The notes under the pieces: generated by a model
Told to the model about the DNA's origin: nothing
Database searches by the model: none
The model's input: only the letters and a program-made list of their open reading frames with translations
In this document: positions 12,356 through 31,185 of the stretch, piece by piece
Position numbering within the stretch: position 1 is the first letter of the stretch
Layout: each line of letters starts with the position of its first letter
Source: Fibrobacter succinogenes subsp. succinogenes S85
GTDB lineage: Bacteria > Fibrobacterota > Fibrobacteria > Fibrobacterales > Fibrobacteraceae
DNA: 32,000 nucleotides
Direction of reading: 5' to 3'
Assembly (NCBI RefSeq): GCF_000146505.1
Contig: NC_017448.1
Coordinates: 930,001-962,000 of the forward strand
Made by a program: the position numbers and the translations under genes

Positions 12356-12529
12356 TTACTTTTCCTCTGATTTTAAGGATTCAAGCGGATTTTTAATTCC
12401 TGCATTTTCCAATTTTTGCAAAACTTCAATAGCGTAATCAATCGCATCCAAGGAATGCGAACTCGCATACATCCTCAGGTCAGAAAGCGCATAGATCGCC
12501 CTTTGGTTGTTCATCTCTTTTTCCGACAT
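12356..12529 (-). CDS. Small hypothetical protein (57 aa) 3 nt upstream of the NhaC-family gene
   Basis: The product is MSEKEMNNQRAIYALSDLRMYASSHSLDAIDYAIEVLQKLENAGIKNPLESLKSEEK. An AAGGAGAG SD sits 5 nt upstream of the ATG (complement 12527-12529). The track's 80-aa version begins at an upstream alternative start. Confidence 0.45.
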   Translation of the reverse strand: MSEKEMNNQRAIYALSDLRMYASSHSLDAIDYAIEVLQKLENAGIKNPLESLKSEEK

Positions 12530-12675
12530 AATCTCTCCTTTGCATTTTTCAAAAAAATACCTAAAAAATCTAATTATTGCACGAAAATAAAATTGCATTT
12601 TTCGTCAAAAAAAAGTCTCTAACTACAACAAGACCCTGTAAGGCTCCTCCTAATGGAGGATGACAGCTTTCCTCC

Positions 12676-12773
12676 CTAACCACTAGCCACTAACCACTTC
12701 CTACTGCCATCCTTCCTACCGTCTACCGCCTACTCCCCCTAACCACTAATCACTAACCACTACCCACTATTTT
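12676..12773. repeat. Three adjacent heptad arrays, nearly G-free on the + strand
   Basis: The arrays are CTAACCA CTAGCCA CTAACCA (12676-12696), CTACCGT CTACCGC CTACTCC (12716-12736), and CTAACCA CTAATCA CTAACCA CTACCCA CTATTTT (12739-12773). Only 4 G occur in 12671-12773. Confidence 0.85.
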
Positions 12774-12779
12774 ATTATC

Positions 12780-12787
12780 TATATTAT

Positions 12788-12788
<1 letters not shown>
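12780..12788 (+). promoter_or_regulatory. TATATTATA -10-like box directly upstream of the TPP riboswitch
   Basis: Its position a few nt before the first conserved riboswitch nucleotides (CTGGGGTGC at 12790) fits a transcription start at the aptamer 5' end. Confidence 0.4.
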
Positions 12789-14484
<1,696 letters not shown>

Positions 14485-14525
14485 ACTGAAACTAGCCAAA
14501 CCATCCGAGAGAATTGGAGGTGTCC

Positions 14526-16307
14526 ATGGAAAACGGAAAGAAAATTCTTAACAACTTCGTAAAGAGCAAATTCGCCGACCAGAATGAACTAAAGAAGGCT
14601 TTGTTCCAAGCCGGCGTTGCCGCGCTTGACGAAGGCTGGACGTTCATGGATGCCACATTCCAGCTCGGCGGCAAGGCTCGCGACGAGGGGCTCTCGGCAG
14701 ACGATGTCGAGAAGATTTTGCGCAACGCCTTCTCCGAAGAAAAGCGCCGTACCGAACGCGAAGCCGAACAAAAGGCAGCCGCACAAGCCGCTCAAGCAGC
14801 AGCGCAACCCGCACAAGCTCCACAGGCTCAAGCCGCCCAAGCCCAGCCGGGCATGGCTTCAGGCTATGCCGCCATGGGCCCAACCGTCATCTCGCCCATT
14901 TCAGCAACGATGATGCAGCAGATGATTGCGCTCGGTCTCGACAACCAGTCTCTTGAGCTGTTGCAGAACTTCAAGATTGACCCCGAAGCGCTCTCGATTC
15001 CATGGCCCGCCCCTGACTGGCGCAAAGACTTTGCAAAGCTCTTGGCGGCAACGTTCAAGCCCGACGAAACCGTTGAATTCAAGATTTCGAACACACCATC
15101 CGGTTCTCGCGAAATCGTCTCGAAGATTATCGCGCAAGACGAAGCGCTCAAGAAAATCATGAAGCAGCTCGACGGTCCGGACGGAGCGCTCCTCACGATT
15201 AATGCAGTGAAAGGCGGCGCCGACGCCACCGACGAAAGCTGGCATTACCGTTACGTTGTCGTAGACAACCCGAAGATGACGCTTGCGAAGCAGCTCGCTT
15301 ACTACAAGGCATTGAACCTCCCCTGCGCCGCCCTTGTGAACACGGGCGCAAACTCCGTGCAGGCCTGGATCAAGATTGAAGCGCATGACCAGGAAGAATA
15401 CAAGGAACGCGTAGACTTCCTTTTCCAGACGCTTGAATCGCAAGGCTTTAAAGTCGATGACGGCAACCGCAACCCAAACCAGATGGTCCGCATGCCAGGC
15501 GTGCTCCGCAACGGCAAGCAGCAGTATCTCATCGCATTGGAACAAGGCGCCAAGAATTTCACGGAATGGCGCGAATGGGCGGAATACTCGCTCGATGGAA
15601 AGCCGCTCGTAGAACTTGCAAGCGATAGCGAAGAAGCTCCGAAAAAAGACGTTACCATTATCGAGAACGTACTCCGCGCTGGTGAATTTTTCTTGTTCAC
15701 AGCCCCGCCGAAAAGCGGAAAGTCGCTTGCGCTCATGGACATGGCGCTTTCCATTTGCCACGGCGAAGACTGGCTCGGCAACACAACAAATGCAAACGAC
15801 GTTCTGTACATCAACTTGGAACTCACCAAGTCCGTGTTCTTGAACCGTCTCTTTTTACTTGGCGAAAAGCGTAACCTCCAGCCGAACACGCCCAAATTCG
15901 GTTTCTTGAATCTCCGCGGCACAGCGCTTACACCGCTTGAAATCGCACAGCTCATCGCAAAGCGCATTCAAGGCGCCAAGAAGCTTGAAAATCACGATTA
16001 CAAGGTCGTCGTGATTGACCCGATATCTGCCGTTTTGCACAACCCGAAGTCTTCAAGACTCAGCGGCTCCCCGCACCAGATTCTGATGCAAATGGTCGAT
16101 TCGATTATCGCCCTCACAGGTTGCGCCGTCGTGACTTCCACGAACATAGGCGAATACCCCTACCTCGAATCCCGCGCCGACAGCGTCATTTCGCTCACGC
16201 CGGTTGAAGGTAGCCTGAACACGTACCAGATTAAAGGCTCGTTCCGCGAATTCCCGAAGACTCTCGCCCGCGAATGCTCCTGGATTTATCCTAGATTTAT
16301 AGTTTAA
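14526..16307 (+). CDS. Primase-helicase-like fusion: RepB-prime/AEP-like primase core plus a RecA-type (AAA_25/RepA-like) ATPase
   Basis: The ATG at 14526 follows a GGAGG SD (14516-14520). The primase-like core spans aa ~222-335 (INAVKGG...YRYVVVDNP...LVNTGANSVQAWIKI...DDGNRNPNQMVRMPGVLRNGKQQ). Walker A is APPKSGKS (15702-15725) and Walker B is KVVVIDP (16002-16022). An Ala/Gln linker lies near 14770-14850. Confidence 0.65.
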   Translation: MENGKKILNNFVKSKFADQNELKKALFQAGVAALDEGWTFMDATFQLGGKARDEGLSADDVEKILRNAFSEEKRRTEREAEQKAAAQAAQAAAQPAQAPQAQAAQAQPGMASGYAAMGPTVISPISATMMQQMIALGLDNQSLELLQNFKIDPEALSIPWPAPDWRKDFAKLLAATFKPDETVEFKISNTPSGSREIVSKIIAQDEALKKIMKQLDGPDGALLTINAVKGGADATDESWHYRYVVVDNPKMTLAKQLAYYKALNLPCAALVNTGANSVQAWIKIEAHDQEEYKERVDFLFQTLESQGFKVDDGNRNPNQMVRMPGVLRNGKQQYLIALEQGAKNFTEWREWAEYSLDGKPLVELASDSEEAPKKDVTIIENVLRAGEFFLFTAPPKSGKSLALMDMALSICHGEDWLGNTTNANDVLYINLELTKSVFLNRLFLLGEKRNLQPNTPKFGFLNLRGTALTPLEIAQLIAKRIQGAKKLENHDYKVVVIDPISAVLHNPKSSRLSGSPHQILMQMVDSIIALTGCAVVTSTNIGEYPYLESRADSVISLTPVEGSLNTYQIKGSFREFPKTLARECSWIYPRFIV

Positions 16308-16328
16308 ACATTCAACACGATTATAAAG

Positions 16329-17723
16329 ATGTACAAACAGAACAATCGTTTTTCACGCCGCTCCGAAGGGAGCATTGCCCGTAACACCATGGGCAACAGA
16401 ATCGGCAAACCCCTCGCCGGAGGCAAGTTCCACGCTTCCAGAAAATCCGATGTCCGCAAGGACGATGAACTCGAAGAAAAGAAGGCAAAGGCCGAAAAGC
16501 CTGTTGTCCGCAAAATTCTTTCGTTCGACGACATCAAGACCCAAGTTGCCGCATGGATGGAAAACGACCGCATTCCGGGAAAGTTGCAAGCCTGGTTTAC
16601 CGCCGAAGCCACTCCCGAAAACTCCGACTGGAGAATCATCAAGGAATACCACGGTGTCCAGGAAAACCTGGTCATTGACGCTCCGTCCCGCGACATGAAG
16701 CCGCTTGAGCTCGTGAAGCGCATCTTGGAACAGCTCCACAAGGAACATTTGCGCATCTTCAAAAAAGCATTGCGCCAAATCTGGTTCCGCGCCACAGGCG
16801 ACGGCCGCTTTGCTCTCCTCGTACAAGTGAATGTCAAAGGCAAAATTTCGGCACACGGCTACAAGACGTTCGTCGACTTTATCGAACGCAGCTGCCCCGA
16901 AGTCATCAGCTGCCACCAGATCCAGTGCTTGCCGGACCGTCTCTTTGACCCTGCCGATGCTCAGGGCATGAAGGTCGAATCCAAATGCTCCTTCGGCAGC
17001 AGCTTTATGCCGATTGCCTCGACCGGCTTTAGCATGCATGTTTTAGACTGGACGCCGCGCATCAAGGATGCATGGCTCAACCTCCCCGTGCGCATCAAGG
17101 ACGCCATCCACCCGAACCGCGAAGACCGTTTCTTCGAATTCTGCTCTGGCCCGTCTTACGTTTCTGCATCGCTCGCCCCGTTCTTCAAGCAGGTCGAAGC
17201 ACTTGACTGCCGCGAATCCGCCATGCAGTCTTCCAAGCTGAACATCCGTAACCTCGCCACGCAGAACATGCGTTTCCACCGCAGCCATCTGGACGCAAAC
17301 TTCGTCTCGAAATTCTTCTCGAAGAGCGATAACGCTGAAGGCCGCTGGACGTTCTACCTCAACCTGGGCATCAACGACACCATCAATTCCGAAATGGTGC
17401 AGACGCTCGCCGGTTCGCGCCCTGAACGCATTCTTTTGCAGACCGGGAACCTCGAAACCGCCTCTAAGGCGATCAAGGCTTTCCGTAACGAAGGCTACAT
17501 GCTCCGCAAGAACATTCCACTCTACATGGAACCGGGTCGTGGAACTTTCGAAATTCTCTTCTTGTTTGTACCGGATAGAGTTGGCATTTTGGGCCAGAAC
17601 CCGGCCCTTGCACACCGTTCACGCAATATCCAGCGCCCGAAAGAACGCCCCACGCGCTCAAATTCGTCGGATATTCCTCATTTTGTGCAAAAAACGCCCA
17701 CTTTTAAGCAAAGAAAAGATTAA
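16329..17723 (+). CDS. TrmA/RumA-like (uracil-5) methyltransferase-fold protein with substituted catalytic motifs; basic N- and C-terminal tails
   Basis: 464 aa. The C-terminal ~230 aa run collinear with TrmA/RlmD. FFEFCSGPSYVSASLA stands where LDLYCGxGxFSLxLA is expected, SKLNIRNLATQNMRF where A..NA..N...N..F is expected, TFYLNLGIND where DPPRxG is expected, ERILLQTGNLETASKAIKAF where IVYVSCNPxTLARD is expected, and GRGTFEILFLF where T.HVE is expected. Confidence 0.6.
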   Translation: MYKQNNRFSRRSEGSIARNTMGNRIGKPLAGGKFHASRKSDVRKDDELEEKKAKAEKPVVRKILSFDDIKTQVAAWMENDRIPGKLQAWFTAEATPENSDWRIIKEYHGVQENLVIDAPSRDMKPLELVKRILEQLHKEHLRIFKKALRQIWFRATGDGRFALLVQVNVKGKISAHGYKTFVDFIERSCPEVISCHQIQCLPDRLFDPADAQGMKVESKCSFGSSFMPIASTGFSMHVLDWTPRIKDAWLNLPVRIKDAIHPNREDRFFEFCSGPSYVSASLAPFFKQVEALDCRESAMQSSKLNIRNLATQNMRFHRSHLDANFVSKFFSKSDNAEGRWTFYLNLGINDTINSEMVQTLAGSRPERILLQTGNLETASKAIKAFRNEGYMLRKNIPLYMEPGRGTFEILFLFVPDRVGILGQNPALAHRSRNIQRPKERPTRSNSSDIPHFVQKTPTFKQRKD

Positions 17724-17762: not shown

Positions 17763-18920
17763 ATGCGATTTTTAAAATGTGCTTCGATCTGTCTTGGTCT
17801 TTCGGCTCTGATTGCATCTGCCTACGTGGTAAAAAAAGGCGATACCCTCTGGGATTTGAGCGCCGAATTTTTAAACGATCCGTTCGCATGGCCGGATTTG
17901 TGGGAAAATAATAGGCACATTGAAGACCCGCACTGGATTTATCCGGGCGACTCCATCTATCTAGGCGAAGGCATCAAGGATGACGGTTACCGTCTCCCGA
18001 AGACAAAACCGTGCGAAGGTGCGGTTGCCGATTCCAACTTGCCAAAGGGCATCAAGTCCGTCGGTTGCGATGAACGCGACGCCCGTAACGGAGACTTCGA
18101 GAACATGCTCGGAAACCTCCGCGACAAGGATAAGAAGCACAAGAAGAAAAAAGCAGCGGACACCTACCTCTATCAGAAGCGCCCTGCTCCAAAGATTTTC
18201 AACGGCTATTACCAGATTTTGGCTCCAGAAATCTATTCGCTCGATTCCATCAAGAAGGACCAGCGTTTCTTCTCCATCCGCACTGGCGAAAAGAAGGAAC
18301 CGATTATCCACATTCCTGAATCTGAAGTCATCGTTGGCATCGGTCGCAAGACAAACGCAAGCCTCAAGAAGGGTGACCTTGTCGAAATCCTGGATGCTCG
18401 CGCCATTGAAGTTCCTTCTCAAAAGGGAAAGAGCTATGACAACTACGCACTAGTAAGGCTTACCGGTTATGCAAAAATTACCGCTATCGGTGATACACTT
18501 TCAAGAGCAAAGATTGTCCAGAGCTTTAGGGAAATCAAGCTTGACCACGCCAAGGCACGTCTAAAGCAGCCGCTCAATATATTGAACGTCTCCGGCTACA
18601 CCGCCGTCCCCGAAGCAAAAATCGAAGACATGGCGATGATCCGTTATACGATGGACCCGATGCTCATCATCGGTGCTTATGCCTACATCCTGGTCGACAA
18701 GGGCGCAAAGCAAGGGTTCAATACCGGAGACGCCATTGCCATCTGGGAAGAAGACACGTCTGACGCAGGTCTCCCACCGAGACTCCTTGGACGCGGCATC
18801 ATCGCTAGAGCCACCGAAAACGAATCGACGGTACTCGTTCGTGAAGTCTATTCGAACAGCCGCCGCATTGAAATCGGACACAAGGTTTCTATAACCCATC
18901 AAGCGAACTTGGCCCAGTGA
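17763..18920 (+). CDS. Secreted LysM-domain protein
   Basis: A signal peptide ([20 protein letters not shown]) is followed by a LysM module ([47 protein letters not shown]) and a Lys-rich linker ([10 protein letters not shown]). Confidence 0.8.
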
Positions 18921-19047: not shown

Positions 19048-21096
19048 ATGCGGATATCTCGTAGCAATCTTCTCTTTCTATCCTTTTTTGCAGGGGGAAT
19101 TGTCTTACCGACGGCAATTCTCTCGTTCTTGAGTGTACGGAACATCCAGAACGAAGCCTACCTTGCACAAAAGAACTATAGCGAGAGCACAGCGACATTC
19201 CGCGAACAATGCGAATCAACCATCAGCAAGGAACAGAACAAGATTTTCCAGGAAATCAAGTCCGCCTCGCTGTACCTTTACGAACAGCCGCACAGCCTCT
19301 TGGACTTCGGAAACGCCACACAATTCAAAACGGTGAACGGCATCGAGGCCATGTTCCTGTACAACAACGGAACACTCATCTACCCCGACATTTCATCGAA
19401 GCACTTTTCAAAGACTTCGGACTATTCAAACAGCATCGCAAGCCAGATCGAAAAAATGCTGTTCCGCGAAGAAGTCACGTCGGCCATGCCGCAGCCCGCA
19501 AGCCTGTCGCGTTCGGCACGCCAATTGCGTTTTTCGTTTGAATCCATTGACGACCACATCCAGAACATTCTTGGACTTGTGCGTATCGCATACAAAACCA
19601 AGGACTATGACGAAGCGCTCCGACTCTTAAACATTCTCGAAGAGCACCCACACCAGCAGGGCTACCTCCATTCGGACCTGACGCGTTCCGTCAACCTGCT
19701 GCACTTTGAAATTCTCGTTGCCCAAAAGAAACACAAAGAAGCTGAAGATTACACGATCGCCGTTTTAAACCAGTTCTTGCAAAGCGAGAACATCGAGAAC
19801 CTGCCCTCGGCAAGATTTTTCTTCGAAACAGCCTTCACCCAAATTCTTTCTTTTGAAAACCTGAGTCAAGAAAAACGCGAAGCTTTCTGGAACTTGCGCG
19901 AGAACTTCAACCGCCAGCTTGGCTACATGGACATATTCTTCAACAACAAAGATATCGTCCAGGCTCTCCTGAACAAGGAGACAACATCCAAGAGCGGCAT
20001 CGACATCATGAGTGACAACAAGTCCACGTTCATCAAGATGAGCTACCCCATCCTTTCAGGGGACCAGGTCGTGCTCGCCAAGGTGAACATCGATGAATAC
20101 CGCGAGCTCATGCGCTCCAAACTCAAGACCTCGTCACAAGGCTGGAAAAGTATCCCCTTCTCCATTACGGAAGGTCCCGACAAGACTCTCATTCTCGGAC
20201 ACGTTTCGGACAGTTCCGCAGTCATGACTCAAGTTGTTCTAGACAAAGTCATTTCCTGGAATCTAACCTTGTACGAAAAAGGCTTAAGCGAAATCAAGCG
20301 TGAAACGCGCAAGCGCATGTTCCTCATGTACGGGCTTTTGTCGTTCTCGCTCATTACCGTATTGCTCGGCTCCATTGTAATGTTCCGCTTCCTCACACAG
20401 GAACACAAGCTTCTGGCCATGAAGGCGAACTTCCTTTCGAGCGTTTCGCATGAACTGAAGACTCCACTCACATCCATCAAGATGTTTGCCGAGATGATGG
20501 CCCGCGGACGCGTGCAGAAAGTCGAGAAAGTGCAAGAATATTCAGGCCTTATTGGCAAAGAAGCGACCCGCCTTGAAAACTTGATAGGCGCTATTTTGAA
20601 CTACACTCGCATGGAACATGGCAAGGGCGGTTTCCATTGGGAAAAGCTTGATTTTTCGGCCTGCGTCCAGAAGGTTTTTGATAACGTAGAAGACATCGGT
20701 GTCGAGAAAGGGCTCATGTTCAATACAAAGATTGAGCCGAGTATGTTTGTGGTTGGCGACTACACGGCTCTTTATAGCTTGGTGCAGAACCTTATCGAAA
20801 ACGCCATCAAGTATACAAACGCTCCGGGCGACATCACTATAACGGTAGCCCCCGACGAAGACAGAGTCGTTTTCTCCGTGGCCGATACCGGTATAGGCAT
20901 CCCGTCTTCGGAACAAAAAAATATATTTAATGATTTTTATAGAGTCGGTGACGAAATGACTCGCAGTACAAAGGGCTCTGGGCTTGGCCTAGCCATCGTA
21001 AAGCGCGTAGCCGAAACGCACAAGGCGACCATTTCACTCACCAGCAAACCCGGCAAGGGCTCCACATTCACCGTAAGATTCAAAAAGGCAGAATGA
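19048..21096 (+). CDS. Sensor histidine kinase with a large (~400 aa) extracytoplasmic domain
   Basis: Two TM segments sit near aa ~7-30 and ~425-450. The H-box is FLSSVSHELKTPLTSI, the N-box LIENAIKYT, G1 DTGIGI and G2 GSGLGLAIV. Confidence 0.9.
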   Translation: MRISRSNLLFLSFFAGGIVLPTAILSFLSVRNIQNEAYLAQKNYSESTATFREQCESTISKEQNKIFQEIKSASLYLYEQPHSLLDFGNATQFKTVNGIEAMFLYNNGTLIYPDISSKHFSKTSDYSNSIASQIEKMLFREEVTSAMPQPASLSRSARQLRFSFESIDDHIQNILGLVRIAYKTKDYDEALRLLNILEEHPHQQGYLHSDLTRSVNLLHFEILVAQKKHKEAEDYTIAVLNQFLQSENIENLPSARFFFETAFTQILSFENLSQEKREAFWNLRENFNRQLGYMDIFFNNKDIVQALLNKETTSKSGIDIMSDNKSTFIKMSYPILSGDQVVLAKVNIDEYRELMRSKLKTSSQGWKSIPFSITEGPDKTLILGHVSDSSAVMTQVVLDKVISWNLTLYEKGLSEIKRETRKRMFLMYGLLSFSLITVLLGSIVMFRFLTQEHKLLAMKANFLSSVSHELKTPLTSIKMFAEMMARGRVQKVEKVQEYSGLIGKEATRLENLIGAILNYTRMEHGKGGFHWEKLDFSACVQKVFDNVEDIGVEKGLMFNTKIEPSMFVVGDYTALYSLVQNLIENAIKYTNAPGDITITVAPDEDRVVFSVADTGIGIPSSEQKNIFNDFYRVGDEMTRSTKGSGLGLAIVKRVAETHKATISLTSKPGKGSTFTVRFKKAE

Positions 21097-21815
21097 TTAT
21101 GCAACAACACAGAATTCTCATTGTTGAAGACGAAGAAATCATCCGGCTTGGGCTCCAGGACAACTTTGAGCTCGAAAACTACGAAGTCGAGACGGCATGC
21201 GATGGCGAAGAAGCCATTGCCAAGACGGATTCATTCCAGCCGCACCTCATCTTGCTAGACGTGATGCTCCCCAAGAAGAGCGGTTTTGAAGTCTGCCGAA
21301 TTATCCGCAAAAAGCACCCGGAATGCATCATCATTATGCTTACCGCAAAGACCGAAGAAACGAGTAAAGTCGCAGGCCTTGACATGGGCGCAGATGACTA
21401 CGTAACAAAGCCGTTCTCTATTCTAGAACTTCTAGCACGCGTGAAGGCGTTCCTCCGCCGAATTGACTTGCAGACTCAAGCAAATCCGACAAAGCAGCTT
21501 GCCTCAGTCGATGCCATTGACTTTGCCGACATCCACCTGGATTTCAAGAAGTTCATCGCCACCAAGGGCGGCGTTCCGCTGGAACTTTCCACAAGGGAAT
21601 TCCAGATTCTCAAGTACTTCTGGCAGCGCCGTGGCGAAGTTGTCTTACGCGAAGACCTGTTGCAAGATCTCTGGGGCTACACTCCCGAAAACATGCCCTC
21701 CACCCGCACGATTGACAACCATATCGTGAACCTGAGGCGCAAACTTGAAGACGACCAGGCCAACCCGAAAATCATCCTTTCTATCCGTGGAGCAGGCTAC
21801 AAGTTTGATGCGTAA
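21093..21815 (+). CDS. OmpR/PhoB-family response regulator
   Basis: The receiver domain shows ILIVEDEE...LILLDVMLPKKSG...MLTAK. The winged-helix output domain shows LSTREFQILKYFWQRRGEVVLREDLL...RTIDNHIVNLRRKL. Its start overlaps the kinase stop (ATGA). Confidence 0.9.
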   Translation: MIMQQHRILIVEDEEIIRLGLQDNFELENYEVETACDGEEAIAKTDSFQPHLILLDVMLPKKSGFEVCRIIRKKHPECIIIMLTAKTEETSKVAGLDMGADDYVTKPFSILELLARVKAFLRRIDLQTQANPTKQLASVDAIDFADIHLDFKKFIATKGGVPLELSTREFQILKYFWQRRGEVVLREDLLQDLWGYTPENMPSTRTIDNHIVNLRRKLEDDQANPKIILSIRGAGYKFDA

Positions 21816-24339
21816 TATTTGGCAAAAAGAAAACGTTTTCAAGGCGTGGGTTTTCGCAATCCTCGCCCTCTGTTCGCTGTTTTCTAGCCAAGCACTCGCA
21901 AGCAAGATGGCATCGCAACTCCAGGAAGCCATCTACCTCTTCGAAATGAAAGGCGAAGTTGACGAATCTATCCGCCTTCTAGAAAAAATTTCCCGTCAGG
22001 GAGATGCCGACGACAAGGAATCCGCATTCTTTTACCTCGGCAAAATCTACGACTTGGCAAACAACAAGGCCCAGGCCAACCACTTTTACAGCCGCAGCCA
22101 GGCGTTTACCAAAAATACAAGCAAATCCTACTGGCTTGCAAGCCGAGACGCCGCTACCAGTTTTGCACCCGTAAGGCTCCTGCAAAAGACAATCCCCCTC
22201 CGCAGCCCCATCCGCAAGTTCTTTGAAGGTAAAAAAGCGAACATCCTTTTTGAAAACGGACACATCGCCAAAATAGAAAGCGGGATGGTTATCGAAATTG
22301 CATCAAAGCTCAATGAAAACGATCACCTGCTGCATATCGATTCCGAAGGAATGTGGTACCAGAATTCCACTCGAGATTCTGTCTTTTACAGGCCGCACAA
22401 TTCGCCCAATCAGGAAACACCTTACAACATCAAAGACTTAAGCCAATTTACCGCCGCAAACGGCTATGCTATCGCCATCACCGACAAGGGCTTCTATATA
22501 TTAGACCGCAAGGGGACAATCACAAAAGGTAGCGTTGACTACACCTCTTGCCAAATCCAGAACGACTTGTTCATTAGCGACAACTTCATTGTCAACTGTC
22601 CCGACAACGCCCTCCACTTTATTTCAGCAAATTCGGCAGCAGAAGCGTTTATCATCGCACAATACGACATCATCCAGCAGACATTTGTCCTCAAGGACAA
22701 AATATATCTCATTTCAGGGAACGAGCTTTTCTGCTACACATTGCAAAATCCAAAGACTCCGCTTTGGAAAGCAGCCGTCGGGAACATCGAAACACTTCAG
22801 GCATTCGAAAAGAATATCGTCACGCTAGAAGCTTCCGGTAAAGTCACCTTGTACGACCAACAGACCGGAAACATCAACGCAAGCATCCGCGTCAACGCCT
22901 CGAACGTGTACCAGCTAGCCCAGGGAACGCTAGGACTTTTCTCGAACGAAGGATCCGTCATTACAGTTGATACGTTACTCCGACCGCTGTGGAATTTCAA
23001 CTTTGCAAAGTCCCCGATGACAGCCCCGATTGTCAAAAGGCGCTTTATCTACATTCCCTACGAAGACAAGAAAATCTACGCCATCGATTCCCATTATTAC
23101 GGTCAGCGTCCACTATATACGAGTAAACTTGCCGCCCAGGCAATTTTACAAGCCAAGCAAGACCATTGGGAAAACATCCCTCCGCTCCTGGATACAATCA
23201 TCAAGAATGAACCAGGCAATGCCGAAGCTCATTTTCTCAAGGCCTTAAATCTGGAGAAGCAGGAGGCGCCCGAAAAGAACCGCCAAAGAGCATGGGCCGA
23301 AGCGGTAAGGCTTTCTGTCGGCGGTAGCCCGCAAATTGCAAGTACAATATTGAGCCATTACAGCGATGTCATCGGTGCAAGTTTTGCAAGCCCGTTAAAC
23401 ATATCGCCCAAGACGATGTACCCGCAATTCCTGGGGGCCAAAAAGAATCTCTACACCGTTGACCCGGCTACAGAACAACTTATCTGCATCAATGCCGAAA
23501 ATGGCGAACAGCGCTGGAGCAAGTACATCGGCAAAATCGGGAACGCCCCAGTCATACAGTCCGATGAAAATGCCATCGTCATTTCAACAGGCTACCAGAT
23601 GAACGTTTACGACATGAACAAGGATGCGTTCAACAAGCCGTTGCAACTCCCAGGAAAAGCATTCAACTTCACAATGACTAGCGATTATATTTACGCCTCG
23701 ACGTGGAATGGTTTTTTGCTCAAGATTTCACGAGCAAACAACAGCATCGTCTGGTCGCGTAAAGTTTATTCCATGCCATTCCATGTCGTAAAGCTCCCTA
23801 AATTCTTGCAGCTTTGCAACCTTGATGGAGCGCTGATGCGCCTCAATGACGATAACGGCTCTACGCAAGAAAAATCATCAAATAGAGTTCCGGTCAACAT
23901 CACGGCCATGGAAGGAATCGACTCGACCCTCGTCCTCGTTTCAAACACAAATAAACTTTTCCTACAGAATACGAAAAAGAAGGATTACAGTCCCACACAA
24001 GTTCTCATGGAATACCCCATTATTTCGATGCAAGTGTTCCGCGACCAGAATGAAGACAAAATCATCATTTCACTTTCGGACCAGTCCATCCTTCTTTATT
24101 CCAACATCGGCACCCCGCTCTGGAAATATCAAGGCAAAAAGTCCATATTCTCCAAGCCTTTCATTTACGATGGCAAAGCATGGATCGACCAAGGGAATGA
24201 AATCATCGCACTTTCTATCAAAACCGGCAAAGTGGTCAAGACTTTCAATACCCCAGGTGGCGCAGGAACACCGTTCATTCTGAACCACACCCTGTTTAGC
24301 GCCTCCCCAAAACGCGTTCTTTACGCATTTCCGCTATAA
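21808..24339 (+). CDS. Secreted PQQ-like/BamB-like beta-propeller repeat protein with TPR-like segments
   Basis: The ATG at 21808 overlaps the regulator's end by 8 nt. It has a signal peptide (VFAILALCSLFSSQALAS) and repeated propeller blades (e.g. INAENGEQRWSKYIG, IVWSRKVY, PLWKYQG). Confidence 0.7.
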   Translation: MRNIWQKENVFKAWVFAILALCSLFSSQALASKMASQLQEAIYLFEMKGEVDESIRLLEKISRQGDADDKESAFFYLGKIYDLANNKAQANHFYSRSQAFTKNTSKSYWLASRDAATSFAPVRLLQKTIPLRSPIRKFFEGKKANILFENGHIAKIESGMVIEIASKLNENDHLLHIDSEGMWYQNSTRDSVFYRPHNSPNQETPYNIKDLSQFTAANGYAIAITDKGFYILDRKGTITKGSVDYTSCQIQNDLFISDNFIVNCPDNALHFISANSAAEAFIIAQYDIIQQTFVLKDKIYLISGNELFCYTLQNPKTPLWKAAVGNIETLQAFEKNIVTLEASGKVTLYDQQTGNINASIRVNASNVYQLAQGTLGLFSNEGSVITVDTLLRPLWNFNFAKSPMTAPIVKRRFIYIPYEDKKIYAIDSHYYGQRPLYTSKLAAQAILQAKQDHWENIPPLLDTIIKNEPGNAEAHFLKALNLEKQEAPEKNRQRAWAEAVRLSVGGSPQIASTILSHYSDVIGASFASPLNISPKTMYPQFLGAKKNLYTVDPATEQLICINAENGEQRWSKYIGKIGNAPVIQSDENAIVISTGYQMNVYDMNKDAFNKPLQLPGKAFNFTMTSDYIYASTWNGFLLKISRANNSIVWSRKVYSMPFHVVKLPKFLQLCNLDGALMRLNDDNGSTQEKSSNRVPVNITAMEGIDSTLVLVSNTNKLFLQNTKKKDYSPTQVLMEYPIISMQVFRDQNEDKIIISLSDQSILLYSNIGTPLWKYQGKKSIFSKPFIYDGKAWIDQGNEIIALSIKTGKVVKTFNTPGGAGTPFILNHTLFSASPKRVLYAFPL

Positions 24340-29301: not shown

Positions 29302-31185
29302 ATGCTGATTGATCAAGAACATGCAGAGTATATGAGAACTAAAGCTCACCCGAGGCAGTTGGGAATTCCCCTGAGCCGTTGGGGGCGTAACCTTATCGCC
29401 TGCTGTCCGTTCCACGCTCCAGAAGAAACATCGCTGTTTTTCTACGACGCGCTAGGTTACTGGCGCTACCGCTGTCTCCAATGTGGTGCAGAAGGCGACT
29501 TGGTCGATTTTTTGATGAAGAGCCGTTTCAACGGCGTGGACGAACAGACCGCCCGTTCCGAAGCCTTTGAATTCCTCGGCGCACTCGACAAGGATCTCGT
29601 AAACAATCAGGATAGCGAACACCCGTGGGTCAAGGAAGTCGGTGGCGAAAAGTCCAAAGTGCTCGAATGCTTTGTACGTTACTGCCACTGGGCCGCCTGC
29701 AAGAGCCCCTCTTCGGCAAAGTTCCTCGAAGCCCGTGGCTGGAGCATTGGCCAAGCCCAACTTTACGGTCTCGGTTACTACAGCGGCGACCCGGAACCGT
29801 TCATCAGCTACTGCATGCTCTCCGGTATCGAACGCCACCAGATCAGTTTTTACCTCGACAACCTCGAAGCGTATCACGAACCGCGAATTACCATTCCGGC
29901 CCGCAATTCCAAGGGATTTATCCATTCCGTTTACGGTAGACTCATCGACGATAACGAAAAGAGCCATACCTACATCACGTATGCTTCCGGCCCGACCGTT
30001 ATTCCGTTCAACATCCAGGCAGATAGCGAAAACCCCATTATCGTGCAAGGTTTCTTTGATGCGCTCACGGCGGACCTCGCCGGCATCCCAGGCGTTGTCT
30101 CCACGATGTTCCAGGAACTGAACGTCAACCACCTGTACAAACTCAAGGCTTGCGGGGCCGAATCATTCACAGTTATTTTGCGCCGCGAAGAAGACCGTCG
30201 CAACCAGGAACTCAAGATTCAAAAATACTTGAAGCTCGCCGAACAGATGCACATGAGCCTCAAGTCCATTGTGCTCCCGAAGGACGAATCCGTTGATACG
30301 TTTGTCCGCAAGAACGGCGCCGACCAGCTCATCGACCTCATCGCCAATACCGAAGTCGATACCATTCATTCGCACCGCCGCTCCATGCTGTTGCAGGACA
30401 TCAAGGAAAACTTCGATACCGCAATGGCATGCCCGCCTGACCAGAGCGTGGGCTACAAGCTCAGCACATTCCCGAAGCTCACCAAGGAAATCGACGGTGT
30501 GCAGTCGGGATGTTTCTTTGTTTCGTCTCAGCCGTTCGGCCTCAAGACATTCTTGCTTTCAAGCCTCACGCTTGACCTCATCGAAAGCAATCCAAACCTC
30601 AAGGTCATTTACGTGGCCTATGAAACACCGCGCCGCCAAATCTTTGACCGCTTCGTTTCCATGCTCATCGGTGAATCGATTTTGAACGTCCGCAAGCAGA
30701 ATGCAGACAACGAAATCAACAAAAAGATTACGGAAGCTACACGCGACCTGATGGCTTACGTGCGCAACAACCGTCTCGAAATCTGGGACGACATGCCTTC
30801 GCTCGACTTTAACGACTTGCTCAAGACACTTAGCCAGGAACTCAAGGACCATCCGGACTTGATTCTCGTGATTGACGGTATCGACCACATGAAGATTACC
30901 GACCGCCCGGAACTCCCGGACATCCACGAGAAGCGTTCGTCCATCATGCTCGACTTGTACAAGGCTCTCGACATCCCGATATTCCTCGGTGGCGAACTCA
31001 TCGATTCCAACATGGGACTCCTTGGCCCGCGTGCATACCTCCGCGATTCTGACGCCATTTACTGGCTTACCGAAAAGGATGGCGCATTGAATCTCTCCGT
31101 AGATTCCAAGCGTATGGGCACAAGCCGCGTGTACGAAGACAAGATTTTGATTGACCCACAATCTAGCCGCATGAAAGAAGCTTAA
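29302..31185 (+). CDS. DnaG-like zinc-finger/primase-Toprim region fused to a DnaB/gp4-like RecA-fold domain, with non-canonical catalytic motifs
   Basis: An AGGAGG SD sits 5 nt upstream. The CHC2 zinc finger is CPFHAPEETSLFF...YRCLQCGAEGDLVDFLM (29401-29484). The Toprim-like region reads IIVQGFFD (Q codon at 30046-30048)...VILRREEDRR...LPKDESVDTFVRKNG. The DnaB_C-like region reads SSQPFGLKT (30523-30549)...VAYET...LILVIDGIDHM. Confidence 0.7.
   Translation: MLIDQEHAEYMRTKAHPRQLGIPLSRWGRNLIACCPFHAPEETSLFFYDALGYWRYRCLQCGAEGDLVDFLMKSRFNGVDEQTARSEAFEFLGALDKDLVNNQDSEHPWVKEVGGEKSKVLECFVRYCHWAACKSPSSAKFLEARGWSIGQAQLYGLGYYSGDPEPFISYCMLSGIERHQISFYLDNLEAYHEPRITIPARNSKGFIHSVYGRLIDDNEKSHTYITYASGPTVIPFNIQADSENPIIVQGFFDALTADLAGIPGVVSTMFQELNVNHLYKLKACGAESFTVILRREEDRRNQELKIQKYLKLAEQMHMSLKSIVLPKDESVDTFVRKNGADQLIDLIANTEVDTIHSHRRSMLLQDIKENFDTAMACPPDQSVGYKLSTFPKLTKEIDGVQSGCFFVSSQPFGLKTFLLSSLTLDLIESNPNLKVIYVAYETPRRQIFDRFVSMLIGESILNVRKQNADNEINKKITEATRDLMAYVRNNRLEIWDDMPSLDFNDLLKTLSQELKDHPDLILVIDGIDHMKITDRPELPDIHEKRSSIMLDLYKALDIPIFLGGELIDSNMGLLGPRAYLRDSDAIYWLTEKDGALNLSVDSKRMGTSRVYEDKILIDPQSSRMKEA

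Follow-up and report, generated by a model that had tools for sequence, protein, structure and literature searches.

The PrimPol-PV1 supergroup, and InversePrim especially, is described as nearly exclusive to mobile elements and prophages (PMC5862659). In the InversePrim architecture the domains run from PriCT-1 through an archaeo-eukaryotic primase (AEP) to a RepA-family ATPase and end with a helix-turn-helix (HTH); these proteins come mostly from Firmicutes, and all analysed cases were prophage-encoded (Kazlauskas et al. 2018, PMC5862659). Here we describe a protein of 593 amino acids (aa), referred to as the target, which is encoded in the chromosome of Fibrobacter succinogenes subsp. succinogenes S85 within a stretch of 32,000 nucleotides (nt; contig NC_017448.1, positions 930,001 to 962,000 of the forward strand), referred to as the window, whose coordinates are used throughout. 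Comparisons of sequence profile, domain order and gene order showed the target to derive from an InversePrim-type phage primase-helicase and to be inherited vertically in the chromosome. Our favoured reading, which we hold to be moderately probable, is that this derivative was captured anciently, has lost several signature residues and now serves as an ATP-dependent switch or adaptor, in Fibrobacteraceae with a partner protein.

The target resembles InversePrim (PHROG 2597) in the order of PriCT-1-like, AEP and RepA-family ATPase domains and in keeping AEP motifs III and IV. Whereas InversePrim members are prophage-encoded, mostly in Firmicutes, and have the ExD, His and HTH intact, the target is a core chromosomal gene of Fibrobacterales and has lost one acid of motif I (the second), both the His and the Lys of motif II, helicase motifs H3/H4 and the C-terminal HTH. 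The AEP fold of the target is shared by RepB' of RSF1010 (3h20, 3h25) and the PrimPol of cyanophage S-2L (6zp9; Foldseek probability 1.00, template modelling (TM) score 0.62-0.65), and a motif II Gln is common to the target and RepB', although the sequences are no more than about 15% identical and neither of the Pfam families RepB_primase and Prim-Pol matched. Unlike the target, the plasmid primase RepB' stands alone, has both motif I acids and carries a helix bundle that recognises ssi. The hexameric SF4 helicase RepA of RSF1010 (1g8y) and the AAA_25 family have the same RecA-type core as the target, with the Walker A Lys, catalytic Glu and Walker B Asp conserved; however, the RepA sensor H179 (LHHASKG) has given way to STNIGE, the next loop with its family-invariant Arg is deleted, and the post-Walker-B (D/E)EN motif is lost. 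DnaC/DnaI provide a precedent of a domesticated phage replication ATPase that is order-wide and under purifying selection (Brezellec et al. 2016, PMC5109545), although they have an AAA+ fold and retain their ATPase as helicase loaders, while the target is RecA-type. The catalytic domain of the 5-methyluridine (m5U) methyltransferases RlmCD, RumA/RlmD and TrmA aligns with the partner (E 4e-14 to 1e-4), which lacks their nucleophilic SCN Cys.

Relationship to phage primase-helicases

14526 to 16307, + strand: target gene, an apparently exapted InversePrim-type primase-helicase derivative of 593 aa (open reading frame, PHROG 2597 match, orthologs)
14516 to 14520, + strand: GGAGG ribosome-binding site, 6 nt ahead of the target ATG

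The target is recorded in S85 as ADL26568.1 and WP_014545329.1, and is annotated as 'conserved hypothetical protein' or 'AAA family ATPase'; a search of NCBIfam with the target gave no informative match. PHROG 2597 ('DNA primase') matched aa 195-536 (E 1.5e-73), and tblastn against phage genomes returned 56 records with 30-36% identity over aa 164-536, from Streptococcus Javan prophages, Faecalibacterium phages Lugh and Aster, Flavonifractor phage Castelnaud and Enterococcus phage EFC-1. These homologs are annotated as DNA primase, primase/helicase or replicative helicase, and those of temperate Firmicutes phages lie in replication modules with helicase, Sak4, RusA and terminase genes nearby. 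The original prediction had regarded this architecture as normally the replication module of plasmids, integrative elements, phages or satellites; the phage homologs and the published survey (PMC5862659) place its normal home in phage replication modules. The phage proteins are about 760 aa long, with PriCT_2, a middle domain, AAA_25 and an extra C-terminal region of about 240 aa.

An exhaustive HMMER scan over 1.84 billion representatives recovered 2,465 relatives, with E values of 1e-30 or lower for 241, and there are hundreds of Fibrobacterales orthologs, so that the gene is not the orphan it had been taken for. The relatives fell into three tiers: Fibrobacter-type proteins, a short group (P0125-P0130; 519-556 aa, 33-39% identity), and a large tier of intact proteins (620-800 aa). 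Some of the last tier (P0131, P0135, P0189 and others; 620-720 aa) form a subgroup with an N-terminal PriCT-1 domain, to which at least one protein of this type (P0281) adds a C-terminal HTH; this is exactly the InversePrim architecture (PMC5862659). By hhalign, the N-domain of the Fibrobacterales proteins matched the N-domain of the P0131/P0189 subgroup with 97.8% probability, and P0189 scored 28.9 bits to PriCT_1 (cutoff 21.1); Pfam did not directly detect PriCT_1 in the target. Descent of the N-domain as a relic from the PriCT-2 of the Firmicutes phage homologs was considered and rejected, since the hhalign probability was only 3% and the domain is homologous to the PriCT-1-like type.

Neighbour-joining on the AEP and ATPase core recovered the short forms as monophyletic in 60/60 bootstraps, which is consistent with a single capture. 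The PriCT-1 subgroup was placed as sister of the Fibrobacterales clade in only 12/60 bootstraps. Capture appears to have happened once, in an ancestor of Fibrobacterales.

Domain architecture and folds

14526 to 14789, + strand: N-terminal helical domain, PriCT-1-like (aa 1-88; four helices, predicted local distance difference test (pLDDT) score about 85)
14790 to 14903, + strand: Ala/Gln-rich disordered linker (aa 89-126; pLDDT <50; 9- and 21-nt coding repeats)
14904 to 15596, + strand: AEP-fold domain with N-terminal helical extension and partly degenerate active site (aa 127-357; domain model)
15621 to 16304, + strand: RepA/RecA-type ATPase domain, truncated past the core (aa 366-593; Pfam AAA_25, Foldseek, RepA profile match)

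The full-length target was modelled with AlphaFold from a 30-sequence alignment (mean pLDDT 80.7), and the middle domain came out as mixed alpha/beta. Every part of the proposed four-part architecture, consisting of a helical N-domain, an Ala/Gln linker, an AEP-like domain and a RecA-type ATPase, was confirmed. Foldseek with the full-length model was swamped by matches of the ATPase domain to RAD51, RadA and DMC1 (about E 1e-10), and a separate model of aa 127-357 was therefore needed (pLDDT 90.2, predicted TM score 0.86). With this domain-only model the top match was the cyanophage S-2L PrimPol (6zp9_A; E 2.3e-5, TM 0.65), followed by RSF1010 RepB' (3h20 and 3h25, E 1e-4 and 5e-4, TM up to 0.62), with the CAPP Prim-Pol, the LigD polymerase and eukaryotic and archaeal PriS ranked lower. 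The earlier assignment of aa 222-335 as a RepB'-like AEP core is thus right at the level of the fold.

Among sequence profiles, Pfam recognised AAA_25 alone in the target (aa 366-536, E 7e-20) and neither RepB_primase nor Prim-Pol matched it at E up to 1. A direct phmmer search of the target against PDB sequences returned nothing useful; the closest solved sequence to the family profile was the RSF1010 RepA helicase (1g8y, E 2.6e-11).

Ahead of the AEP domain, an insertion of about 35 aa (MMQQMIALGLDNQSLELLQNFKIDPEAL; 14898-15000, aa ~125-158) was seen in Fibrobacteraceae only, being missing in the deep Fibrobacterales group described below and in all phage relatives. Its ratio of nonsynonymous to synonymous substitution (dN/dS) was about 0.04, a sign of strong purifying selection, and it may form a new interaction surface.

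Loss of AEP and helicase motifs

15255 to 15272, + strand: AEP motif I, VVVDNP (aa 244-249), where the family reads (A/V)LVESD
15339 to 15368, + strand: AEP motif II, NTGANSVQAW (aa 272-281), where the family reads HSGGKSxHA(I/V)
15447 to 15509, + strand: AEP motifs III and IV, FKVDDGNRNPNQMVRMPGVLR (aa 308-328), with D311, R322 and R328 kept and R319 replaced by Q

The AEP motifs of the target were compared with those of 132 relatives, and fixation was then checked in 78 Fibrobacteraceae orthologs. The first acid of motif I, which is E in 128/132 relatives, is D247 in the target (77/78 orthologs), while the second, D in 124/132 relatives, is replaced by P249 (76/78 orthologs). The family motif E-x-D is aligned with D247-N248-P249, and the acidic pair had correctly been read as degenerate. 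In motif II, the Lys (115/132 relatives) is N276 and the His characteristic of InversePrim (PMC5862659; 125/132 relatives) is Q279, the latter in 78/78 orthologs. A motif II Gln occurs in the active enzymes RepB' and PolpTN2 (PMC5862659), and since it is the normal state there, the change from His to Gln at position 279 is not disabling by itself. The motif III Asp (124/132 relatives) is retained as D311, and in motif IV the Arg and the residue six positions on, each R in 126/132 relatives, are retained as R322 and R328 (78/78). Between them, position 319 is R in 122/132 relatives, Q in the window protein and M or Q among orthologs. The 'Rh' feature that defines motif IV (PMC5862659) is present as R322-M323 in 78/78 orthologs. 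The acids of motifs I and III, which serve as metal ligands, are 'nearly universally conserved', and PolpTN2 is inactivated by mutation of motif I and likewise by mutation of the motif IV Arg.

15702 to 15725, + strand: Walker A, APPKSGKS (aa 393-400), intact (K399 and S400 in 78/78 orthologs)
16002 to 16022, + strand: Walker B, KVVVIDP (aa 493-499), intact (D in 125/125 relatives; D498 here)
16134 to 16181, + strand: degenerate helicase H3/H4 region (aa 537-552; census of 125 relatives, RepA alignment)

The ATPase motifs were compared with those of 125 phage-type relatives, with fixation checked in the same orthologs. Alignment with RepA equates K43, E77 and D140 with K399, E432 and D498, of which E432 is the catalytic Glu found in 125/125 relatives. 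Past Walker B, the family motif YK...GDEN reads SA...NPKS in the target and is lost. The H3 sensor motif, HHHSKG in the family and LHHASKG (containing H179) in RepA, reads STNIGE, with N at position 540 in 75/78 orthologs. A 14-aa deletion takes out the DRxSGSG loop, a motif invariant in 116-125/125 relatives, and the C-terminal HTH-like region, about 60-250 aa long in the family, is absent.

In a deep group of Fibrobacterales genomes (L006 and L008-L011; target 31-33% identical), the motif II His is likewise Gln, the second acid of motif I is gone, the loop is deleted and the C-terminus is truncated; motif IV, in some members also motif III, has further been lost. These losses suggest that primase function was already dispensable in their common ancestor.

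These motifs bear on whether the target could still be an active primase-helicase that serves the chromosome, for instance in repriming or in restarting replication, by means of a RepB'-like variant active site. The intact AEP fold, the kept residues D247, D311, R322 and R328, the motif II Gln that is normal in active RepB' and PolpTN2, and the intact Walker A, Walker B and catalytic Glu all fit such an enzyme. We nevertheless consider it quite improbable, as the second motif I acid is a fixed Pro where such acids are nearly universal and mutation inactivates PolpTN2, neither the equivalent of the RepA H179 motif nor the DRxSGSG loop survives, the C-terminal HTH is missing, and the sister deep group has shed motif IV and in part motif III.

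Conservation and selection across Fibrobacterales

Full-length Fibrobacter orthologs formed more than 120 clusters with 73-96% identity. Scanning one genome per GTDB species gave 78 loci, all of them in Fibrobacter, Fibrobacteraceae or Fibrobacterales, and every Fibrobacterales genome recovered carries the target, which is therefore not strain-specific. None of the 78 orthologs analysed across the order has a broken reading frame, and the sequence GGAGGTGTC(C/T)ATG at the start of the target is kept throughout the F. succinogenes clade.

Nei-Gojobori analysis of 12 orthologs of the F. succinogenes clade gave approximate dN/dS values of 0.096 for the N-domain, 0.29 for the linker, 0.039 for the pre-AEP helices, 0.042 for the AEP domain and 0.046 for the ATPase domain. 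The linker is under relaxed selection and all folded domains are under strong purifying selection, with the degenerate AEP domain constrained as tightly as the ATPase domain. The low values in the folded domains indicate that the target is neither a pseudogene nor a decaying remnant. A functionless remnant of an ancient prophage could account for the phage ancestry and for the loss of several catalytic motifs and the C-terminal region, but not for a reading frame intact in 78 orthologs, dN/dS of about 0.04 in the folded domains, replacement residues that are themselves fixed, a conserved ribosome-binding site and a conserved partner. This explanation is effectively refuted by the selection analysis, and we give it next to no credence.

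The proposal that the gene is a domesticated replication module holds in its first half: the target is a vertically inherited core gene of Fibrobacterales with no mobile-element genes nearby. A working replication module is unlikely, with one metal-ligand acid of motif I, the His sensor, DRxSGSG loop and HTH lost.

The partner gene FSU_0846

16329 to 17723, + strand: FSU_0846, an RNA m5U-methyltransferase-fold pseudoenzyme of 464 aa with basic disordered tails (family profile against PDB)

The gene directly 3' of the target, FSU_0846, is annotated in S85 as 'hypothetical protein'. It has 174 homologs, of which the few with source names are all from Fibrobacter, and no Pfam domain was found in any of them. 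A 20-sequence profile of the family searched against PDB matched RlmCD SP_1029 (5xj1, E 4e-14), RumA/RlmD (7e-7) and TrmA (1.3e-4), with the C-terminal 150 aa aligning to the m5U-methyltransferase catalytic domain, in confirmation of the degenerate methyltransferase fold that had been suspected. None of the 20 aligned orthologs has the catalytic SCN Cys, which has given way to G, S, E or H, and the DPPR motif is degenerate; the GxG motif that binds S-adenosylmethionine is degenerate in the F. succinogenes clade and better kept in distant orthologs. No relatives of the N-terminal half (about 170 aa) were detectable. The protein also has Lys/Arg-rich disordered N- and C-terminal tails, a conserved PHFxQK near the C-terminus, and an invariant block GYMLRK...PL...P...F...LF.FVPDR.G.L.

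In 74 loci the target is followed directly by the partner, without exception on the same strand and mostly after no more than about 65 nt; some of the overlaps seen between the two genes probably stem from start codons that were miscalled. The pair at 14526-17723 is thus conserved and syntenic in related genomes, as judged by tblastn across the loci, and none of the three outcomes that the original prediction had named as contrary to it (no AEP match, flanking integrase or att sites, a strain-specific pair) was observed.

The pairing of a phage-derived AEP-like domain and P-loop NTPase with a protein of nucleic-acid-modification fold could indicate a two-gene NTPase-based anti-phage or conflict system, one of the possibilities raised at the outset. 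PADLOC lent it no support: there was no significant match, the best being mad8 (E 0.009) and mad2 (E 0.0096), which cover only short, generic P-loop and methyltransferase stretches. Defence genes are typically patchy and lie in variable islands. The target, in contrast, is present at a fixed locus in every Fibrobacterales genome recovered and is under strong purifying selection, and this fixed core-genome synteny makes a defence function very improbable.

Gene order around the target

17763 to 18920, + strand: LysM-domain protein, third of the most conserved triad (Pfam LysM, E 2.4e-8; collinear in Fibrobacteraceae)
19048 to 24339, + strand: histidine kinase, OmpR-type response regulator and TPR/BamB-like beta-propeller protein (collinear with the triad in most Fibrobacteraceae)

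Synteny was determined by tblastn of window proteins against the 78 loci. The order target, partner, LysM protein, histidine kinase, response regulator and beta-propeller protein is collinear in about 70 loci, and persists in the most divergent Fibrobacteraceae, in which the target is 44-47% and the partner about 30% identical. The divergent locus L007 keeps the triad of target, partner and LysM protein but not the kinase and regulator. The prophage or mobile-element setting of InversePrim was not found; instead, the 78 loci show fixed housekeeping synteny. The other genes of the window are likewise housekeeping genes (glnS, thiC, cysE, an nth-like gene, ruvC, a two-component system and an SBP_bac_5 protein). 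Among the Pfam domains of the neighbouring window genes there were only housekeeping domains and no integrase or recombinase domain. No tRNA was found in the window, no composition break at the target, and no flanking att-like repeats or iterons around it, the sole internal tandem repeat being the coding Ala/Gln linker; the lack of a mobile-element context noted previously is upheld by these results.

In the deep group, no partner gene was found within 8-10 kb of the target homolog, and no LysM gene nearby. A ClpB-like AAA+ gene follows the homolog directly in 5/5 genomes and, in contigs that are long enough (L006, 10001-18850, and L009), is followed in turn by BamA, Skp, LpxD, LpxC/FabZ and LpxA. 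The gene context of the deep group is a different yet equally fixed housekeeping setting.

These neighbourhoods raise the alternative that the target is an ATPase in a module of the cell envelope or of signalling, together with the LysM protein, the two-component system and the BamB-like beta-propeller, and that descent from a nucleic-acid enzyme has no bearing on what it does now. The six-gene block collinear in about 70 Fibrobacteraceae species would agree with this, as would the deep-group gene beside ClpB-like, BamA, Skp and LpxD genes, which is an envelope-biogenesis neighbourhood too. However, the target has no signal peptide or transmembrane segment, its tightest linkage is to a cytoplasmic protein of RNA-methyltransferase fold, L007 has the triad without kinase and regulator, and gene order conserved within a single order can reflect mere shared ancestry. 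We regard an envelope module as unlikely.

Three further observations were made on these loci. The beta-propeller gene that ends the block (21745-24339, + strand; 864 aa, TPR and BamB-like (PQQ-type) regions) evolves far faster than its neighbours, with about 45% identity versus about 83% for the response regulator. A type II secretin lies upstream of the target homolog in L008. Two complete six-gene blocks (L029 and L080), with targets 69% and 76% identical to that of the window, occur in the metagenome-assembled genome RGIG6669; the doubling is most simply explained by a bin that mixes two species, not by duplication.

Upstream regions and other features of the window

12781 to 14484, + strand: divergent thiamine pyrophosphate (TPP) riboswitch (12781-12878) and thiC (12868-14484), upstream of the target solely in the F. 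succinogenes clade

The gap between the thiC stop (14484) and the target is 41 nt and that between the target and FSU_0846 (ATG 16329) is 21 nt, and no terminator-like hairpin was found in the former; on the reading frame, the GGAGG Shine-Dalgarno sequence, both gaps and the missing terminator, the original prediction was correct. Co-transcription of the target with thiC, and thus behind the TPP riboswitch, had also been suggested. With this spacing it is possible in S85, but the linkage is confined to the F. succinogenes clade, and in other species the upstream gene is glnS (in either orientation), a SpoU methylase gene or another. As the adjacency of thiC is derived and limited to one clade, it does not explain the function of the target.

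The TPP riboswitch model matched the window with 33.8 bits, below the Rfam gathering score of 54.3, and matches of 35-37 bits were found at the same position, in the thiC leader, of three other species (L042 6205-6299, L058 6209-6303 and L070 6177-6274). The match of the leader to the model is end to end and overlaps the thiC start codon. The leader appears to be a divergent, lineage-specific TPP variant that would go unnoticed in standard annotation.

In species without thiC upstream, the target is preceded by an AT-rich region with recurrent TAnnTTTG-like or CTACATT motifs. At 25-45 nt before the target ATG, the sequences AAATAA(G/A)CTACATT or TTATCTTG / TATTTTGG (TAnnTTTG-like) were seen in L001, L002 and about 50 other loci. 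These motifs may be promoter -7 elements of the Bacteroidota/FCB type. A sigma-70 promoter scan was uninformative, with counts equal to the shuffled expectation.

Ahead of thiC, an array of about 10 CTAACCA-like heptamers (12674-12769) lies between an open reading frame of 80 aa (12356-12598, minus strand) and the TPP riboswitch; the array also makes up two 32-nt copies 63 nt apart. A second primase/helicase-like gene is present at 29302-31185 (+ strand), divergent from ruvC and annotated in S85 as 'putative DNA primase' or 'CHC2 zinc finger domain-containing protein'. Its product has an intact CHC2 zinc ribbon, a weak DnaG match (TIGR01391, 83.9 bits versus a cutoff of 283.6), Gln at the Toprim Glu position (IIVQGFFDA, judged by eye) and a C-terminal DnaB-like domain with a non-canonical P-loop (SSQPFGLKT); its phage relatives are limited to weak DnaG matches with 22-26% identity.

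Proposed role of the target

The losses described above, under continued constraint, suggest that the target has probably taken on a new cellular role. In our favoured reading, the target would no longer prime or unwind DNA and would most likely act as an ATP-binding, slowly hydrolysing switch or adaptor, while its disabled AEP groove may still bind nucleotide or single-stranded nucleic acid. In Fibrobacteraceae it would form a complex with the presumably co-transcribed FSU_0846, whose putative RNA-binding fold has lost the nucleophile. An analogy is offered by RecA-fold paralogs that are degenerate and by modification enzymes that are catalytically dead, which serve as mediators or chaperones.

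Replacement of a helicase loader, in the manner of DnaC, DnaI or DopE, was also considered. This candidate role is weakened by the presence of DciA in the replication operon of S85 (PMC5109545); with DciA already there, no vacancy for a loader is evident.

Several points weigh against a switch or adaptor acting with a partner. D247, D311, R322 and R328 survive and the motif II Gln is compatible with activity, which makes residual nucleotidyl transfer possible. The partner is absent within 8-10 kb in the deep group, and the pairing is therefore not universal. The dN/dS values are approximate because dS is about 1, near saturation, although the contrast with the linker is clear. The deleted DRxSGSG...D.DA motif appears to resemble DnaB motif H4, which bears the inter-subunit arginine finger and DNA-binding residues, and the Arg lost from the target is a putative finger. 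Lastly, literature searches by locus tag, accession and topic within the library searched returned no mention of either gene or of a cellular InversePrim derivative.

Implications for Fibrobacterales

While the family to which the target belongs is otherwise tied to prophages, the target is a clear counter-example, having been captured by a bacterial order, having lost several signature residues and its DNA-targeting tail, and being under selection of housekeeping strength. As a RecA-type/AEP case it joins the few domesticated phage replication proteins, such as DnaC and DnaI. We put forward, tentatively and as less than an even prospect, that the two adjacent pseudoenzymes form a previously unrecognised, Fibrobacterales-specific and possibly essential ATP-dependent machine for handling nucleic acid, which would be the first cellular exaptation of a PrimPol-PV1/InversePrim protein. 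The two conserved proteins are a testable pair in agriculturally important cellulose degraders. Should the pair be essential, it would provide a lineage-specific marker or target, and a remnant AEP domain that still bound nucleotides or nucleic acid would exemplify the reuse of a dead polymerase fold.

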